Below, piece after piece: positions 34,021 through 64,000 of a stretch of DNA of 64,000 bases (positions within the stretch are counted from its first letter, which is position 1; the number at the start of each line of letters is the position of its first letter). The notes beneath the pieces are model-generated. The model saw nothing but the letters and a program-made list of their open reading frames with translations. It did not search any database and was not told the DNA's origin. The position numbers and the translations under genes were made by a program. This DNA is from Nitrospiraceae bacterium (GTDB lineage: Bacteria; Nitrospirota; Thermodesulfovibrionia; UBA6902): NCBI GenBank assembly GCA_003599275.1, contig QZJG01000057.1:6556-70555 (forward strand). The letters run 5' to 3'.

Positions 34021-34054
34021 GTCATTGCGAGCAGCAGAGATTCCTCGCAATGAC
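34021..34054. repeat. Palindromic repeat, GTCATTGCGAG family, copy 8 (minimal 34-bp form)
   Basis: The sequence is GTCATTGCGAG-cagcagagattc-CTCGCAATGAC, with perfect 11-bp arms. Confidence 0.9.
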
Positions 34055-56000: not shown

Positions 56001-56102
56001 TACCACAGAGGTCACAGAGAGAAAAGAACAGGGAGTGAGAAGTCGGGAATCATCAAGCTTTTTATTTTTCACTTCTTTTTACTCTGTGTTCTCTGTGGTT
56101 AA
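56001..56102. repeat. Hairpin repeat, CACAGAG family
   Basis: The sequence is TACCACAGAGGTCACAGAGAG...ACTCTGTGTTCTCTGTGGTTAA. It lies between the rSAM fusion gene and rng. Confidence 0.85.
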
Positions 56103-57639: not shown

Positions 57640-57670
57640 GTCATTCCGGCTTAAAGATTGCCGGAATGAC
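57640..57670. repeat. Palindromic repeat, GTCATTCCGGC family (minimal form)
   Basis: The sequence is GTCATTCCGGC-ttaaagatt-GCCGGAATGAC. Confidence 0.85.
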
Positions 57671-57703: not shown

Positions 57704-58516
57704 ATGACACTCAACGACAAATTCACCACCCTTAAAGAGACACTGAAGGCGATGGACAGGGTGATCATCGCATATTCGGGCGGCGTTGACAGCGCCTTTC
57801 TTCTGAAGGCTGCCTCCTTGTCCGGACTCGGCGAGGTCCTCGCGGTAACGGGAATATCCGGAAGCCTCCCGCAGGAGGAACTGTCTTCTGCGAAGGACAT
57901 CGCATTGTCGCTCGATGTAAAACACAGGACAATAATAACGGAAGAGCTTGCAGATGAAAATTATGCGAACAATCCTCCCGACAGGTGCTATTTCTGCAAG
58001 AAAGACCTCTTCGGGAGGCTCAGGAAAATAGCAGATGCGGAGAAAATTCCGTTCATCCTCGACGGCACCAATGCGGATGACGCAAAGGAGTGGCGGCCCG
58101 GCAGACGCGCAGCCGCTGAAGAAGGGGTCCACAGTCCCCTGTTAGACGCCGGCCTGAGTAAAAATGAGATCAGGGAGCTTTCGCGGACCCTCGGTTTGCC
58201 TACCTGGGACAAGCCTGCGACCCCCTGCCTTTCTTCACGCTTCCCTTATGGGCAGAGGATCACGGCAGAGGCCCTTGCGAGGGTAAGCCGCGCAGAGAGT
58301 TTTATAAAAAAATTCGGGACAAGAGAACTGCGGGTCAGGGACCATGCGGAGATGGCGCGAATTGAGGTCCGTCCCGAAGATTTCTCCATATTGACCAACG
58401 ATGATGCAAGAAATAAAATTGTAGAATTTCTGAAATCCCTCGGTTATAAATACGTCACCCTGGACCTTCAGGGCTTCAGGAGTGGAAGCTTGAATGAACG
58501 AAACCACATATCATAA
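57704..58516 (+). CDS. larE: PP-loop ATP-utilising enzyme, LarE-like sulfur transferase family
   Basis: The SGGVDS PP-loop is present. A conserved Cys context (PATPCLSSRFPYG) resembles the LarE sacrificial-Cys motif. I saw no larB or larC in the window. Confidence 0.7.
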   Translation: MTLNDKFTTLKETLKAMDRVIIAYSGGVDSAFLLKAASLSGLGEVLAVTGISGSLPQEELSSAKDIALSLDVKHRTIITEELADENYANNPPDRCYFCKKDLFGRLRKIADAEKIPFILDGTNADDAKEWRPGRRAAAEEGVHSPLLDAGLSKNEIRELSRTLGLPTWDKPATPCLSSRFPYGQRITAEALARVSRAESFIKKFGTRELRVRDHAEMARIEVRPEDFSILTNDDARNKIVEFLKSLGYKYVTLDLQGFRSGSLNERNHIS

Positions 58517-59684
58517 AGAACTTTCAAAATGCGTCCGGTGCGGCGCATGCAAATCATTATGCCCGACGTATTTAACGACACTGAATGAAACGATGGGGGC
58601 CAGGGGCAGGGTGGCCATGCTGGGTGAGCTCGAAGAGGACCGCCTTTCGCCTACAAAGGGGCTTGCCGAAAAGATATTCAGTTGCATGCTCTGCGGGGCC
58701 TGCAAGAACCTCTGCCCTACCGGGATCGATATCCAGGAGGTCATATATCAGGGAAGGGCCAGGCTGAAAAAATCCTTCGGGCGCGGCCTCCTGCTGCGGA
58801 CCGCCCTGAAATACTCGGCATCGAGGATGGACCCGGCTTTTTCCATATTACGTGGATTGCAGTCGGTATTTTACGGGCCGCTCTTCAACGCGGGCCTTCT
58901 GCCTTACATTCCGGAGATAGCCGCGCGGCCTTTTAACAACAGCAGCCAGGTTTATAAAAATATAAAAAAGATCGGCAGGATGGCGATCTTTGCCGGATGC
59001 AGCGTGAATTATTTTTATCCGTATCTGGGGAAAGCCCTGTCGAACATATTGCTCAAAAAGGGATACGAAGTCGTCGTGTTTAAAGGTGAGTCCTGCTGCG
59101 GTGCGCCATTGAGGTCTGCGGGACTTGAACAGGAGGCATTATCTCTCGCAAAAAAAAATACAGAGCACTTCAGGAAGGTGCGGGCCGAGGCGATAATCAG
59201 CATGTGCCCTACGTGCACCTCGGTAATACGCGGGCAATATCCGCTTCTGACCGGAGACACGATCCCTAATTTCCTGGACGTAAATGAATTCATCGTCAAA
59301 TACGGCATCGCGGAAGGTCTTGAAACGGGCCCGGAGGTCGTTACCTACCACGATCCCTGCCATCTCAACTACGGACTTGGGACCAGGAAAGAACCCCGTC
59401 AGATCCTCAAAGGCATCCGGGGCGTTGAATTTGTGGAGATGCAGAACGCGGACGAATGCTGCGGGTTTGCGGGTTTCTTCAGCCTGTATTTTAAAGGCAT
59501 ATCAAAAAGTCTCGGAAGAAAAAAGATGGACAGCATAATCAACTCAAAAGCCGGTACGGTAGTCACTTCATGCCCCGGATGCATCATGCAGCTGGAGAGT
59601 CTGAAAATAGAGACTGACGCAAAAGTTGATGTCAGGCATATCGTTGAGATAATTGATGAAGCTATGGGCGCTGGGGTAAAATAA
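58494..59684 (+). CDS. (Fe-S)-binding protein with two ferredoxin-type clusters and two CCG domains (GlcF/HdrD-like)
   Basis: [24 protein letters not shown], and two Cys-rich CCG regions (ESCCGAP and ECCGFAG) are present. Confidence 0.85.
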
Positions 59685-59724
59685 ACGCGGTATCCGCGGA
59701 TTAATACAAAGGAGAGAGAACCTA

Positions 59725-60369
59725 ATGAAATTTTTTATTGACACGGCAAACACAAAGGAAATCAAAGAGGCGTATTCACTGGGAGTCATAGACGGCGTGA
59801 CTACTAATCCCTCTCTAATGGCAAAAGAGGGCAAAGAGCCGATGAAGCTGCTTAAGGAGATTTGCGCGATAGTTGACGGCCCGGTAAGCGCGGAGGTAAT
59901 CAGCCTCGAGGCTGAAGGGATGGTGAAAGAAGCAAAGAAGCTGGCAAAAATTCACAAGAACATCGTAATTAAGGTCCCGATGACCAAAGACGGGCTCAAG
60001 GCGACAAAGACACTCTCAGGGCTCAAGATAAAAACAAACGTCACACTGATGTTTTCACCGAACCAGGCATTGCTTGCCGCCAAGGCGGGCGCGACTTATG
60101 TAAGCCCGTTTGTGGGGAGGCTCGACGACATAACCCATTACGGCATGGAGCTTGTAAGCCAGATACTTGAAATCTATGACAACTACTCGTTTAACACGGA
60201 GGTCATCGTAGCGAGTATCCGCAACCCGCTTCATGTGCTTGATGCAGCAAGGATAGGCGCCCATGTCGCGACCATCCCCTTTTCGGTCATTGAACAGCTT
60301 TCAAGACATCCGCTTACGGACATCGGAATTGAAAAGTTTCTAAAGGACTGGGAAAAGGTACCGAAGTAA
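59725..60369 (+). CDS. tal: Transaldolase/fructose-6-phosphate aldolase (short, type 3B)
   Basis: [11 protein letters not shown]......G...GVTTNPSL, the Schiff-base Lys in IKVPMT, and [10 protein letters not shown] are present. It resembles the Bacillus-type 212-aa Tal over its full length. Confidence 0.9.
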
Positions 60370-60385
60370 ATTAAGATTGTGTGAT

Positions 60386-60474
60386 GTCATTGCGAGGAGC
60401 ATTAGCGACGAAGCAATCTCACTGGATATAACCGGGCCGAGATTGCCACGCACCCTTCGGGCGCTCGCAATGAC
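60386..60474. repeat. Palindromic repeat, GTCATTGCGAG family, copy 10
   Basis: The sequence is GTCATTGCGAGGAGCATTAGCGACGAAGCAATCTC...GAGATTGCCACGCACCCTTCGGGCGCTCGCAATGAC. Confidence 0.9.
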
Positions 60475-60502
60475 GGTTTGCATGACAATTGGAGGTCAAC
60501 AA

Positions 60503-60721
60503 ATGCCTGTTTACGAATATAAGTGCAATGACTGCAACGAGAACTTTGAAAAGCTTGTCTCCGGGGCAAACCCGGACGTTTCATGCCCGAAATGCAGCTC
60601 GAAAAATATCACGAAGAAGTTTTCCCTGTTCGGCATGAGCGGCGTTGAAAAGCCGGTCACCTCGGCAGGCGGCTCAGGGTGCTCTTCGTGCACCTCTTCC
60701 AAATGTAAAAGCTGCCATTAA
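60503..60721 (+). CDS. FmdB-family zinc-ribbon protein with a Cys-rich tail
   Basis: The sequence MPVYEYKCNDCNENFE...CPKCSS is preceded by GGAGG. The tail is GGSGCSSCTSSKCKSCH. The upstream part of the track's 114-aa ORF is repeat copy 10. Confidence 0.8.
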   Translation: MPVYEYKCNDCNENFEKLVSGANPDVSCPKCSSKNITKKFSLFGMSGVEKPVTSAGGSGCSSCTSSKCKSCH

Positions 60722-60762
60722 AGAGGCTAACAGGCTGCTGAAAAAGTCTGTTGCAATGCCAA

Positions 60763-60838
60763 GTCGTCATACCCGCGAAGGCGGGTATCCATGTCATAAC
60801 ATGGAAGTGGATTCCCGATTACTACCTCGGGAGTGACG
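60763..60838. repeat. Palindromic repeat, GTCGTCATACCCG...GGGAGTGACG family, copy 2
   Basis: The sequence is GTCGTCATACCCGCGAAGGCGGGTATCCATG...GTGGATTCCCGATTACTACCTCGGGAGTGACG. Confidence 0.85.
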
Positions 60839-60887
60839 AACTTCTCGAATTTCAGCAATGACGAATAAAAGGCATGTCCCCAACCCC

Positions 60888-62216
60888 TTAATACTGATAC
60901 TCCATCGCCATCTGGCTAAGGGAGTCTTTGCGAAGGAGGTACTGGACCTTGTCCTCGGCGATCATCCTGAATGCCTGTTTGATAATCTCTTTATAGAATT
61001 CGCAGAACGCCGCCTTTTGGTACATGTTGCCTCTTGCGTGCATTTCAGCCGGGCACGGCGAGCCGCAGATGTGTCTGAAGTCGCAGGTATCGCATTCCTC
61101 GATCTTCTCAACCATCCTCTCGCGGATCTGTTTGAACGGTTTTGACTTCATCGCTGTGTCAATCGACGTCTTGAAGATATTGCCTCCCGAGAATTCCTTG
61201 AATCCGATGAACTCCCCGCACGGGACCATCTCCCCGTCTGCCGTGACAGTGAGGAAGGTCCTTCCGCCGCCGCATGGGGAGATATCGCACATCATGCGTC
61301 TTGCAGTGGGCGCAATAATAGCCAGAATGACGTTTGCGAAATTGCCGATGACGATCTGGTGCTTTGTCTTTTGTGAAAGCTCCATTGCAGTCTCAACCGC
61401 CTTCATCATGTTTTTGGCAAATACCATGTCGTCCGGCTTCAGGCTCCAGGAGCGTTTCTGTGTGAGACGCACCGGGTTTAAAAGCATGCAGGGGACTTTC
61501 TTTTTGTGCAGGAATTTCACAAGCTCCGAGAGTTTATTTACATTGTATTTCGTGACCGTTGCGATAACATTCAGTCCCTCATAGCCCTTGAACCAGTCAA
61601 GCGCCTGCACGGCCTTTTTGAAATTGCCTTCGCCCTTTACAGACACGCGCGAGCGGTTGTTGACAGCAGCAGTAGCCGCGTCAAGGGAAATGCCGACGCC
61701 GACCCTGTATTTCATCATAAAGGCCGCGTCCTTTTTCTCAAGCAGAAGCGCATTGGTCTGGATGCCGAAGAGCATTTTATTGTGATATTTCTTTATCCCT
61801 TCAAAGATAATGTCTTTTGCAAGAAGCGGCTCGGCAGCGTGAAATACGATGACCGGTTTTTTCTTCATGCCGTTGAAATGCTCCGCGATTTTAGACAGTG
61901 TCATGTCCAACTGCTCCCATGTCATCTGTGTGCCGTGCCTTCTGATCTTTGCCGGGATGTAGCAGTAAGGGCAGTTTGCATTGCACCTGTCTGTGGGGTC
62001 AATGTAGACGCAGTTCAGCGGCTCATTGAACCTGAAGTTTTTCATCTCCGTGTCGAGGTGTTCGCGCTCTTTGTTGTAGAGCTTGATCAGATCATCGGGA
62101 AGCATGAATTCCCCGTTGTTACGAGGCAGCAGGCCCCAGAAGACATTCTCCGGATCCAGCGCCAACTTCCATTCTGTATCAATGTTTGAAAACGAAATTC
62201 CGCGTGTGTTGTTCAT
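60888..62216 (-). CDS. Radical SAM/SPASM peptide-maturase-like enzyme (CbpB-like)
   Basis: The CNANCPYC cluster is present. The C-terminal SPASM cysteines are CDISPCGGG...CGEF...CDTCDFRHICGSPCPAE...C. The protein is 442 aa. Confidence 0.85.
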   Translation of the reverse strand: MNNTRGISFSNIDTEWKLALDPENVFWGLLPRNNGEFMLPDDLIKLYNKEREHLDTEMKNFRFNEPLNCVYIDPTDRCNANCPYCYIPAKIRRHGTQMTWEQLDMTLSKIAEHFNGMKKKPVIVFHAAEPLLAKDIIFEGIKKYHNKMLFGIQTNALLLEKKDAAFMMKYRVGVGISLDAATAAVNNRSRVSVKGEGNFKKAVQALDWFKGYEGLNVIATVTKYNVNKLSELVKFLHKKKVPCMLLNPVRLTQKRSWSLKPDDMVFAKNMMKAVETAMELSQKTKHQIVIGNFANVILAIIAPTARRMMCDISPCGGGRTFLTVTADGEMVPCGEFIGFKEFSGGNIFKTSIDTAMKSKPFKQIRERMVEKIEECDTCDFRHICGSPCPAEMHARGNMYQKAAFCEFYKEIIKQAFRMIAEDKVQYLLRKDSLSQMAMEYQY

Positions 62217-62266
62217 TTTGTGTTGCTCTCCTTTTTCATGGTTATATCTGTTACGTAAATACAGCC

Positions 62267-62325
62267 GTCATTGCGGCTTGTCCGCAATCCTTCTTAAAGA
62301 AAGATTCCAGGCAAGCTGGAATGAC
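62267..62325. repeat. Palindromic repeat, hybrid GTCATTGCGGC...GCTGGAATGAC
   Basis: The sequence is GTCATTGCGGCTTGTCCGCAATCC-ttcttaaagaaa-GATTCCAGGCAAGCTGGAATGAC. It lies directly upstream of the rSAM gene. Confidence 0.85.
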
Positions 62326-62378
62326 AATAACAATATGAATACTACCTCGAAATTAAATGACGGACACGACAGTGAATG

Positions 62379-62441
62379 ACCACTGAGGCACTGAGACGCC
62401 GGGGTTTTATTTTTCCTCTGTGCCTCTGTGCCTCTGTGGTT
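62379..62441. repeat. Hairpin repeat, CACAGAG family, 14 nt downstream of the peptide ORF
   Basis: The sequence is ACCACTGAGGCACTGAGACGCCGGGGTTTTATTTTTCCTCTGTGCCTCTGTGCCTCTGTGGTT. Confidence 0.85.
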
Positions 62442-62454
62442 TGCTTATTTTCTG

Positions 62455-62589
62455 TTACAATGGCATCTTCTTCTTCGGCACGTCGCCGTACATTACGAAG
62501 TGCGTAAGGCCGTTTGCTGTCTTGGCGCATTTCATATGAAATGAAATTGCGGCCTTTGTCTTCTTCTCAGCCTTCTTTGCCTTGTTCAT
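62455..62589 (-). CDS. 44-aa candidate precursor peptide (MNKAKKAEKKTKAAISFHMKCAKTANGLTHFVMYGDVPKKKMPL), not in the ORF track (CbpA-like)
   Basis: The Shine-Dalgarno sequence is very strong (AAAGGAGGTGAGGAGTA-ATG). It lies on the same strand between cbiO and the rSAM/SPASM gene. The track's overlapping 62-aa ORF is in a different frame and has no Shine-Dalgarno sequence. Confidence 0.55.
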   Translation of the reverse strand: MNKAKKAEKKTKAAISFHMKCAKTANGLTHFVMYGDVPKKKMPL

Positions 62590-62640
62590 TACTCCTCACC
62601 TCCTTTCTGTCCTTAGCGGTTGCTCAAAAAGTTTGTAATT

Positions 62641-62722
62641 GTCATTGCGAGGAGCGGTTTCAGCGACGAAGCAATCTGTAATTTATTGAAAAGTGAGATT
62701 GCTTTGCTTCGCTCGCAAAGAC
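62641..62722. repeat. Palindromic repeat, GTCATTGCGAG family, copy 11
   Basis: The sequence is GTCATTGCGAGGAGCGGTTTCAGCGACGAAGCAATC...GAGATTGCTTTGCTTCGCTCGCAAAGAC. Confidence 0.85.
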
Positions 62723-62740
62723 GGCAAAAATACTTTTTCA

Positions 62741-63658
62741 TTAGTCTGTATTCTGTGCTCTGTGTTCTTTGTTCTCCATCGCCTTCAGTATCTCTCTTCT
62801 TGCCTCACCGATGGTGAGTGGAATGCGGTCAAAATTTATCTTGTCCTCGTGCTTTAATTTGTAAAGCAGCTCCGCTATATGCGGCAGCCTGAGCTTTATA
62901 TTCGCCATGTCTTCCGGCGCATCAAAGACCTCTTCCGGCGTGCCGCCTCTCGTGATTCTACCCTTGCTCAGGATATAAAGACTGTCAAGAAACACCGGCA
63001 CAAGGTCCACGCTGTGAGTTGCCATTATAACAGTCACGCCGCTTTCCTTGTTCAATTTCCGAAGCAGTTTCATCATCCTGTATTCGCCCATGGGATCGAG
63101 CCCGGCAGTGGGCTCATCAAGAAGGAGCGTTTCATGCCCCATTGCCAAAAGCCCGGCGATGCACGCGCGCTTTTTCTGCCCGAAGCTCAGGTTGTGCACG
63201 GACTTTTTCTCAAGCCCTGAAAGCTCAACCTCCTCCAATGCATTCAGCACACGCCTCTCAACTTCCTTTGCATTAAAGCCCATATTCATCGGGCCGAATG
63301 CCACGTCTTCAAAGAGCGTAGGCGCAAAGAGCTGATCATCCGGACTTTGAAATACAAGCCCGACCTTTTTATATATCTCCTTTGGCGACAGGGTGCTGAT
63401 ATCAATCCCGCTTAAATGGATATTGCCTTCAACCCCCCTTAGCAGCTTGTCCATGGCCCGAAGCAGGGTTGTCTTGCCGGAGCCATTGGCCCCCAGCAGT
63501 CCGACAAACGTACCCTTTTTCACCTCAAGATTTATATCTGAAAGCGCATGCGTTCCATCCGGATATTTGTAGGACACATTTATGACCGAATACATCAGAT
63601 CATTCGTTTCCGTCTGTGCTCTGTGCTCTTTGTTCTGTGTTCTTCTTAAATCATCCAT
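62741..63658 (-). CDS. cbiO: ECF/cobalt-type ABC transporter ATP-binding protein (CbiO/EcfA)
   Basis: Walker A GANGSGKTT, the signature LSFGQKKRACIAGLL, and Walker B LLLDEPTAGLD are present. The ATG at 63658 has GGAGGAGCGGT upstream. Both protein ends contain NKEHRAQ, which is encoded by a repeat. Confidence 0.9.
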   Translation of the reverse strand: MDDLRRTQNKEHRAQTETNDLMYSVINVSYKYPDGTHALSDINLEVKKGTFVGLLGANGSGKTTLLRAMDKLLRGVEGNIHLSGIDISTLSPKEIYKKVGLVFQSPDDQLFAPTLFEDVAFGPMNMGFNAKEVERRVLNALEEVELSGLEKKSVHNLSFGQKKRACIAGLLAMGHETLLLDEPTAGLDPMGEYRMMKLLRKLNKESGVTVIMATHSVDLVPVFLDSLYILSKGRITRGGTPEEVFDAPEDMANIKLRLPHIAELLYKLKHEDKINFDRIPLTIGEARREILKAMENKEHRAQNTD

Positions 63659-64000
63659 ACCGCTCCTCCGATAACTACTACTATAAAGGCAACGGCAAGC
63701 TCTGCGGCCTTTAAGGGCCGGCTCTTTAACAGAGGCATATCACCTGTGTAGCCCCTCTGGATCATCGCATCTGCTGTTTTCTGGCTCTGCTCAAAGCCGC
63801 GCAAGACCAGTGAGCCCGTCAGTACTCCGAATGAATTCAGGCCCCTTCGGAGCCCGGCGTATCCAAGCCGGTTCTTCTGGGCGCTGTAGATGGTAGAGGC
63901 GTCCTCAAGAAAGACAAACAAATACCTGTAGGCAAACATCATGATCTCAATAAAAGGCCGCGGCACGCGCAGCCATGAAAGCGCTGCAACAAACTCGATA
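63646..64000 (-). CDS. cbiQ: ECF transporter transmembrane component CbiQ/EcfT; 5' end lies outside the window
   Basis: The frame is open to the right window edge. The sequence AYRYLFVFLEDASTIYSAQKNR is typical of CbiQ. The gene overlaps the cbiO start by 13 nt. Confidence 0.8.
   Translation of the reverse strand, partial: IEFVAALSWLRVPRPFIEIMMFAYRYLFVFLEDASTIYSAQKNRLGYAGLRRGLNSFGVLTGSLVLRGFEQSQKTADAMIQRGYTGDMPLLKSRPLKAAELAVAFIVVVIGGAVWMI

Follow-up and report, generated by a model that had tools for sequence, protein, structure and literature searches.

The gene pair cbpA-cbpB, which encodes a short peptide and a radical S-adenosylmethionine (SAM) enzyme of the SPASM type, belongs to the B12 regulon, being found either in cobalamin biosynthesis (cbi/cob) gene clusters or behind a cobalamin riboswitch. 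The copy studied here lies on the minus strand at one end (positions 60888-64000) of a 64-kb stretch of Nitrospiraceae DNA, the whole of which is called the window, and its 44-amino-acid (aa) peptide is, by homology, a divergent CbpA overlooked by the curated model of the family. We consider it probable that cbpA and cbpB form a two-gene module of the B12 regulon in which CbpB would almost certainly modify CbpA, the product would serve the intracellular handling of cobalt or corrinoids, and hairpins would tune expression. The central features are the following.

62594..62606, minus strand: Shine-Dalgarno sequence AAAGGAGGTGAGG of cbpA
62455..62589, minus strand: cbpA, 44-aa precursor peptide, identified by conservation and profile comparison
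60888..62216, minus strand: cbpB, radical SAM/SPASM peptide maturase of 442 aa, identified by TIGR04163 and by Pfam Radical_SAM and SPASM

The sequence-only reading from which this analysis set out had described a 44-aa open reading frame (ORF) with cbiO upstream and a radical SAM gene downstream, all on one strand, and a strong Shine-Dalgarno sequence ahead of it; coordinates and sequences match those found here, the start codon lying at 62589.

The genomic context of the pair was read from 76 loci encoding CbpB relatives (Nitrospirota/Thermodesulfovibrionia, Omnitrophota, Bathyarchaeia and Planctomycetota), whose ORFs were clustered and the clusters named via Pfam; the context beyond the window was taken from the close relatives L001 and L005. 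Upstream of the pair stand CbiO in 33 loci, a CobD-type aminotransferase in 7, corrin methylases in 6 and CbiB in 5, and downstream CbiD in 24, CobO in 14 and CbiA in 6. Most loci carry cbi/cob genes: counted anywhere in the locus, corrin methylases occur in 51 of the 76 and CbiO in 40. CobT, CobS, CobC, CobQ, an HD-domain protein and a TonB receptor with TonB are further recurrent neighbours, and BtuFCD-like genes are near the pair in a few loci (L027, L032 and L060). The HD-domain protein is kept inside cbi operons between corrin methylase genes (10721-11506 in L001, and in 19 other loci). Since the neighbours vary among the cbi/cob genes, the constant partner of the pair is the cobalamin gene set and not the energy-coupling factor (ECF) transporter. 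The earlier proposal that the pair is attached to an ECF cobalt-type transporter thus describes the window, where cbiQ-cbiO lies upstream, whereas the link itself is to the whole B12 regulon.

Riboswitches were found mainly with a second, large clade of CbpB (about 40-45% identity), which NCBI likewise calls CbpB and whose members come from Planctomycetota, Syntrophales and Thermodesulfobacteriota; here cbpA encodes 33-47 aa and its stop codon overlaps the start of cbpB. In each of the nine loci retrieved from this clade (L077-L085) a cobalamin riboswitch (RF00174, 54-78 bits against a gathering score of 31.5) lies on the same strand about 90-140 nucleotides (nt) upstream of cbpA, and three of these riboswitch-preceded loci have no cob gene nearby, leaving cbpA-cbpB as a stand-alone unit. 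At L084 5350-5799 and L085 5266-5810, back-to-back cobalamin riboswitches face opposite strands, one preceding cobC-cobU-cobT-cobS and the other cbpA-cbpB. The Nitrospirota locus L062 has a cobalamin riboswitch about 320 nt upstream of cbpA, and a scan of window positions 60000-64000 with Rfam gave none, the 5' end of the operon lying outside the window. Across Nitrospirota, Omnitrophota, Planctomycetota, Thermodesulfobacteriota/Syntrophales and Bathyarchaeia, cbpA and cbpB are inseparable. Three loci show a cobalamin riboswitch just downstream of cbpB (L023 7045-7304, L030 7313-7575 and L044 7339-7614), followed in L023 and L030 by a TonB-dependent receptor and TonB, a BtuB-like unit. L077 carries group II intron domains (RF02003 and RF00029) at 2061-2735, ~5 kb upstream of the pair, and its 38-aa gene between cbiO and cbiD proved to be a detached N-terminus of CbiD and no second peptide.

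The neighbourhoods also bear on the idea that modified CbpA is released and works outside the cell, be it as a metallophore that scavenges cobalt or corrinoids or as a ribosomally synthesised and post-translationally modified peptide (RiPP) with antimicrobial action, which we regard as quite improbable. A scavenging role would suit riboswitch control, some loci have the TonB-dependent receptor and TonB just downstream, and others have BtuFCD-like and ABC-2 transporter genes nearby. These TonB receptors, however, have a riboswitch of their own, as ordinary BtuB genes do, and in the neighbourhood clusters of the 76+ loci no exporter, no peptidase (leader peptidases included) and no immunity gene recurs. 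Moreover, the stand-alone loci consist of two genes behind a riboswitch and nothing else, and CbpA has neither a signal sequence nor a double-glycine leader.

The enzyme matches TIGR04163 (CbpB) at 508.8 bits (cut-off 375), residues 16-426 aligning with positions 11-426 of the 428 in the model, and NCBI gives the name CbpB to a protein of 100% identity encoded in a Nitrospiraceae metagenome-assembled genome; the name that the sequence-only reading had proposed for the enzyme is thereby borne out. The next NCBIfam models all remained far under their cut-offs (PapB 128.9, DynA 120.1 and anaerobic sulfatase maturase 118.3 bits), and the SCIFF, ranthipeptide and sactipeptide models failed (TIGR03974 87.4 against 425, NF047865 128.9 against 340 and NF045574 79.9 against 625). 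The protein contains PF04055 and PF13186. In an alignment of 40 homologues both the radical SAM motif CNANCPYC (C78, C82 and C85) and eight auxiliary-cluster cysteines (C310, C315, C333, C375, C378, C384, C388 and C405) are invariant. The full C-terminal SPASM cysteine set seen earlier is thus confirmed, and its eight cysteines suffice for two fully ligated auxiliary clusters. By sequence the nearest solved structures are CteB (E 9e-19) and an anaerobic sulfatase-maturing enzyme (anSME). An AlphaFold2 model of CbpB (predicted local distance difference test score 78, predicted template-modelling (TM) score 0.82, the N-terminal 65 residues being of low confidence) matched the folds of CteB, anSME, ChlB, TigE and SuiB, all of them peptide- or protein-modifying SPASM enzymes; CteB came first by E-value, and anSME superposed best among the top matches (TM score 0.84 by target length, root-mean-square deviation 3.0 A). 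A PqqD-like RiPP recognition element (RRE) was not found in CbpB by Pfam at E<=1.

The resemblance to anSME raises the question of a distant protein substrate, with the small ORF merely incidental. This would suit the superposition, although CteB leads by E-value, and also the possession of all eight auxiliary cysteines, as in anSME. We nevertheless find it scarcely credible. The sequence-only reading had named clustering with sulfatase maturases as a possible objection, and the enzyme falls outside their family, reaching 118.3 bits with TIGR03942 where 349.45 is the cut-off. Furthermore, five phyla have the peptide gene right beside cbpB, strong purifying selection acts on it, the cbpB start overlaps its stop codon in the second clade, and CbpA lacks the C/S-x-P/A-x-R sulfatase motif.

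The window's cbpA encodes MNKAKKAEKKTKAAISFHMKCAKTANGLTHFVMYGDVPKKKMPL. With this peptide as the tblastn query, a cbpA homologue was found 0-430 nt upstream of cbpB in essentially all of the 76 loci having upstream DNA (about 61 from bacteria and 5 from archaea), so the small ORF is conserved beside orthologous radical SAM genes, a point on which the sequence-only reading had made its idea of a peptide-maturase pair depend. Over the last 30 codons of 59 distinct DNA sequences the mean column entropy was 0.39, 0.22 and 1.28 bits at codon positions 1, 2 and 3; because the variation concentrates at third positions, cbpA is shown, by its codon pattern, to be a translated gene under purifying selection. 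The 64-kb window contains four copies of the Shine-Dalgarno core AAGGAGGTG, where 0.6 would be expected, and the bacterial homologues keep a AAAGGAGGTGA motif ahead of their start codon, which is often TTG. Members of the family in a large protein collection are always labelled 'hypothetical protein', and those of the Nitrospirota/Omnitrophota clade are either annotated so or left uncalled.

The N-terminus of CbpA is variable and rich in Lys; it is followed by a conserved core (I15-D36) and then by the tail VPKKKMPL. C21, its single cysteine, G27, L28 and H30 are invariant, position 29 is S or T, position 31 F or Y, and position 17 usually aromatic. The cores of the window, Planctomycetota, Bathyarchaeia and Omnitrophota peptides align without gaps and share the spacing aromatic-x3-C-x5-G-L-[ST]-H-[FY]. 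Scores with TIGR04164, the curated model of CbpA (25 positions; cut-off 35 bits), were graded, 47.5 bits for Planctomycetota, 32.1 for Bathyarchaeia and 15.9 and 12.6 for two Omnitrophota peptides, and hhalign of the window-clade profile against the canonical CbpA profile returned a 92% probability (E 6.6e-7 over 25 columns). On the grounds of the same position, the same invariant spacing, the hhalign match and the graded scores, the window ORF is a divergent CbpA that the curated model overlooks. The CbpA label proposed for the peptide therefore stands by homology, whereas TIGR04164 fails to detect the window's clade. A profile search with the peptide alignment among 1.84 billion representatives matched 21 clusters, including variants with acidic flanks; several of the P0369-P0373 set have such flanks in place of Lys-rich ones. 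One of the 21, the 1251-aa repetitive protein P0380, is a chance match. In P0373 (102 aa) a CbpA-like core follows a 2Fe-2S-ferredoxin-like N-terminal stretch. In L060 (4833-5996) a long upstream ORF, free of stops for ~1.1 kb, continues in frame into the CbpA core, and cbpB begins 1 nt later; the arrangement is either a fusion or the result of a problem with the assembly or the stop codon.

In the window the two genes are 238 nt apart, and the spacer contains two inverted repeats, located where the sequence-only reading had placed them.

62379..62440, minus strand: stem-loop 1, 21 bp, -29.1 kcal/mol
62267..62325, minus strand: stem-loop 2, an element resembling repetitive extragenic palindromic (REP) sequences, GTCATTCCAGC...GCCGCAATGAC

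The spacer folds with -76.8 kcal/mol (z = -4.8 against shuffles). Stem-loop 1 begins 14 nt past the cbpA stop codon, is built of CACAGAGG repeats and has the tail CATTCACT, which is no U-tract; the heptad repeat of CACAGAG type that forms it also makes up another array at 56004-56097. An Rfam match of this hairpin to mir-306 was dismissed as chance (29 bits against a gathering score of 52). The spacer measures 66-430 nt in the Nitrospirota/Omnitrophota clade with few exceptions, and the gene preceding cbpA usually ends 0-40 nt away. Among 61 bacterial loci, the 70 nt past the cbpA stop fold with a median of -30.5 kcal/mol and 92% reach -20 or below, compared with medians of -5 to -18 and 0-38% after other genes of these operons. 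In the 19 loci in which both spacers measure at least 40 nt, the best 50-nt hairpin was -25.6 kcal/mol downstream against -12.6 upstream of cbpA (Wilcoxon p = 4e-5). The stem after cbpA starts a median of 12 nt past the stop codon and has a median of 17 bp, and a T-rich tail (at least 5 T in 8 nt) was found in only 5% of the 61 loci; the absence of U-tracts rules out a canonical Rho-independent terminator.

Stem sequences vary by lineage and are REP-like (TGTAGGGGCG..., CACAGAGG... or GTCATTCC...). L005 and L007 share stem-loop 1 and only L005 shares stem-loop 2, and the closest relative, L001, has unrelated stems in place of both. This turnover is one of the observations that would fit a neutral origin, namely that the two hairpins are insertions of genome-wide REP-like repeats with no effect on expression. 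Both stems come from repeat families present elsewhere in the window, the cbiO-cbpA spacer also holds one, and neither the second clade nor the archaea have a spacer. We take neutrality as possible, yet it is not the reading we would back, given the frequency of a strong stem after cbpA relative to other operon genes, its strength relative to the upstream spacers of the same loci and its constant position despite the change of sequence. Since a stem persists at the same place although its sequence is replaced, the comparison favours a functional stem-loop, acting as a barrier to 3' decay or as a partial block to read-through. As for the suggestion that the hairpins are attenuators, the conserved structured spacer is real in this clade; the missing U-tracts and the dispersed REP-like repeats leave attenuation as one possible reading.

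We propose the following course of events for the module. In the Nitrospirota lineage of the window, cbpA-cbpB sits within the cbi operon for anaerobic cobalamin synthesis, immediately behind the genes of the cobalt ECF transporter, and scarcity of B12 would switch on its expression. In the window's clade the stem-loop without a U-tract would most likely block 3'-5' decay or partly stop read-through, with the consequence that the cbpA message would exceed that of cbpB; in the second clade the stop/start overlap would couple the two genes instead. As the N-terminus of CbpA lacks conservation and an RRE could not be detected, CbpB is expected to recognise the conserved core (aromatic-x3-C-x5-G-L-S/T-H-F/Y) rather than a leader. 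Its 5'-deoxyadenosyl radical would then abstract a hydrogen from CbpA, and one modification would be installed that involves the sole invariant cysteine. Judging from the nearest relatives, an intramolecular thioether from this cysteine to a residue of G-L-S/T-H-F/Y is the most likely product, oxidation of the cysteine being the alternative. As no protease or exporter accompanies the pair, modified full-length CbpA would most likely remain in the cell, where it may help to handle cobalt or corrinoids, His30 and the sulfur being candidate ligands. A more specific version, which we put forward tentatively and hold to be rather doubtful, sees modified CbpA as a ribosomally made cofactor or chaperone of B12 supply, a cross-linked His/thioether peptide induced through the riboswitch that would hold cobalt or a corrinoid intermediate.

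A further possibility is that CbpA is a sacrificial scaffold like PqqA or MftA, the cross-linked residues being cut out later to yield a small molecule for cobamide synthesis, such as a ligand or redox cofactor. The SPASM enzymes PqqE and MftC are generally known to act in this way, the CbpA core is extremely conserved across phyla and the pair sits within a biosynthetic operon. However, no peptidase or further tailoring enzyme co-occurs, the stand-alone two-gene units would depend on housekeeping enzymes for all later steps, and the anaerobic cobalamin pathway is, as far as is generally known, without a missing step; we judge the scaffold unlikely.

Several observations weigh against the proposed module as a whole or in part. 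The modification, the modified residue and the role of the product are inferred from sequence. No cob genes were found within 6 kb in five Bathyarchaeia loci and in the Planctomycetota loci L070 and L071, and no riboswitch was found in the scanned loci L064, L066, L069, L070 and L071, the search in L071 being negative even at E<=1. TIGR04164 gave no match to the window peptide at E<=10. CteB presumably binds the substrate cysteine at an open site of its first auxiliary cluster (Aux-I), a site that the eight-cysteine CbpB may lack. Going by the acidic-flank variants, flank charge is not essential, which weakens the idea that the Lys-rich flanks are needed, for example for binding corrin carboxylates. 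With regard to the hairpins, copies of the repeat families of both stems lie elsewhere in the window, other spacers included, and the second clade has no cbpA-cbpB spacer at all, so a high ratio of peptide to enzyme is no universal need.

The remaining features of the locus precede cbpA on the minus strand.

63646..64000, minus strand: 3' part of cbiQ, ECF transporter T component (PF02361 CbiQ, E 2e-23, and TIGR02454); the gene continues past the window
62741..63658, minus strand: cbiO, ECF transporter ATPase, identified by Pfam and NCBIfam (TIGR01166 cbiO, 215.4 bits, cut-off 211.8)
62641..62722, no strand assigned: REP-like inverted repeat of the cbiO-cbpA spacer, GTCATTGCGAG...CTCGCAAAGAC

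Because family matches begin only at residue ~20-25, the true start of cbiO is probably the ATG at 63595. Arrays of CACAGAG-type heptads border the gene (63612-63643 and 62744-62775) and extend the ORF at both ends, adding NKEHRAQ-like residues. REP-like palindromes of the types GTCATTGCGAGGAGC...AGCGACGAAGCAATCT and GTCATTSC...GSAATGAC are dispersed in spacers (60385-60419 and 62640-62677, and also 34021-34054 and 57640-57670), the copy at 60385-60419 being a further one of the element in the cbiO-cbpA spacer; one such palindrome lengthens the FmdB-type ORF at 60377 by a spurious N-terminal stretch. The cluster ends with cbpB, and the genes beyond are unrelated and divergent: on the opposite strand, 57704-60721 encodes LarE (a sulfur transferase, TIGR00268, 324 bits), a CCG Fe-S protein, a fructose-6-phosphate aldolase and an FmdB zinc ribbon protein.

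The family as such is already catalogued (TIGR04164 'cobo_pep' and TIGR04163 'rSAM_cobopep'), and the window pair agrees with the catalogued CbpA/CbpB in an enzyme that passes the model, a short peptide upstream, the same spacing of residues and a cobalamin context. It differs in that the peptide is missed by TIGR04164 and has a longer C-terminus (MYGDVPKKKMPL), in the structured spacer of 66-430 nt that its clade has in place of the stop/start overlap, and in its position inside a cbi operon rather than behind a riboswitch of its own. No paper on the CbpA/CbpB family was found in the searchable literature, in keeping with the earlier statement that no chemistry or function is known for it; what is new, by sequence comparison, is the peptide clade overlooked by the curated model. 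The SCIFF pair CteA/CteB and the ranthipeptide pair PapA/PapB, whose SPASM maturases form thioethers, are similar in their small Cys-containing peptide substrate, CteB being the top match by sequence and fold and PapB the second-best NCBIfam model. In contrast to CteB and PapB, CbpB lies far below the model cut-offs, has no detectable RRE and retains all eight auxiliary cysteines, and CbpA has one cysteine instead of six or of repeated Cys-X3-Asp/Glu motifs. With anSME, the best-superposing top fold, CbpB shares two auxiliary clusters fully ligated by cysteine, and anSME recognises a short local motif around a cysteine without a leader; its substrate differs from that of CbpB, a dedicated 44-aa peptide encoded next door and devoid of the sulfatase motif. 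PqqA/PqqE, MftA/MftC and QhpC/QhpD likewise combine a small peptide and a SPASM enzyme for a housekeeping cofactor pathway and not for antibiosis, whereas no conserved peptidase, chaperone (PqqD/MftB) or partner enzyme subunit goes with cbpAB. In E. coli, REP-type stem-loops between malE and malF stabilise the upstream part of a polycistronic mRNA. The stem after cbpA resembles these, as well as the leaky terminators that follow RiPP precursors, in being a strong repeat-built stem without a U-tract after the gene expected in excess; the cbpA stem, unlike the malE-malF stem-loops, is known from sequence alone, from uncultivated Nitrospirota.

The CbpA family is thus broader than TIGR04164 detects, and its invariant residues, the single cysteine and G-L-S/T-H-F/Y, show where the modification should be sought. 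Direct control by cobalamin riboswitches in several phyla narrows the role of the pair to the supply of cobalt or corrinoids under B12 limitation. If the product does handle cobalt or corrinoids, it would be an extra component in a pathway considered fully mapped. Should modified CbpA prove to be a cofactor or chaperone, it would be a RiPP that serves a housekeeping function in B12 metabolism and a hitherto unrecognised component of the anaerobic pathway, present from Bathyarchaeia to Nitrospirota and Planctomycetota.

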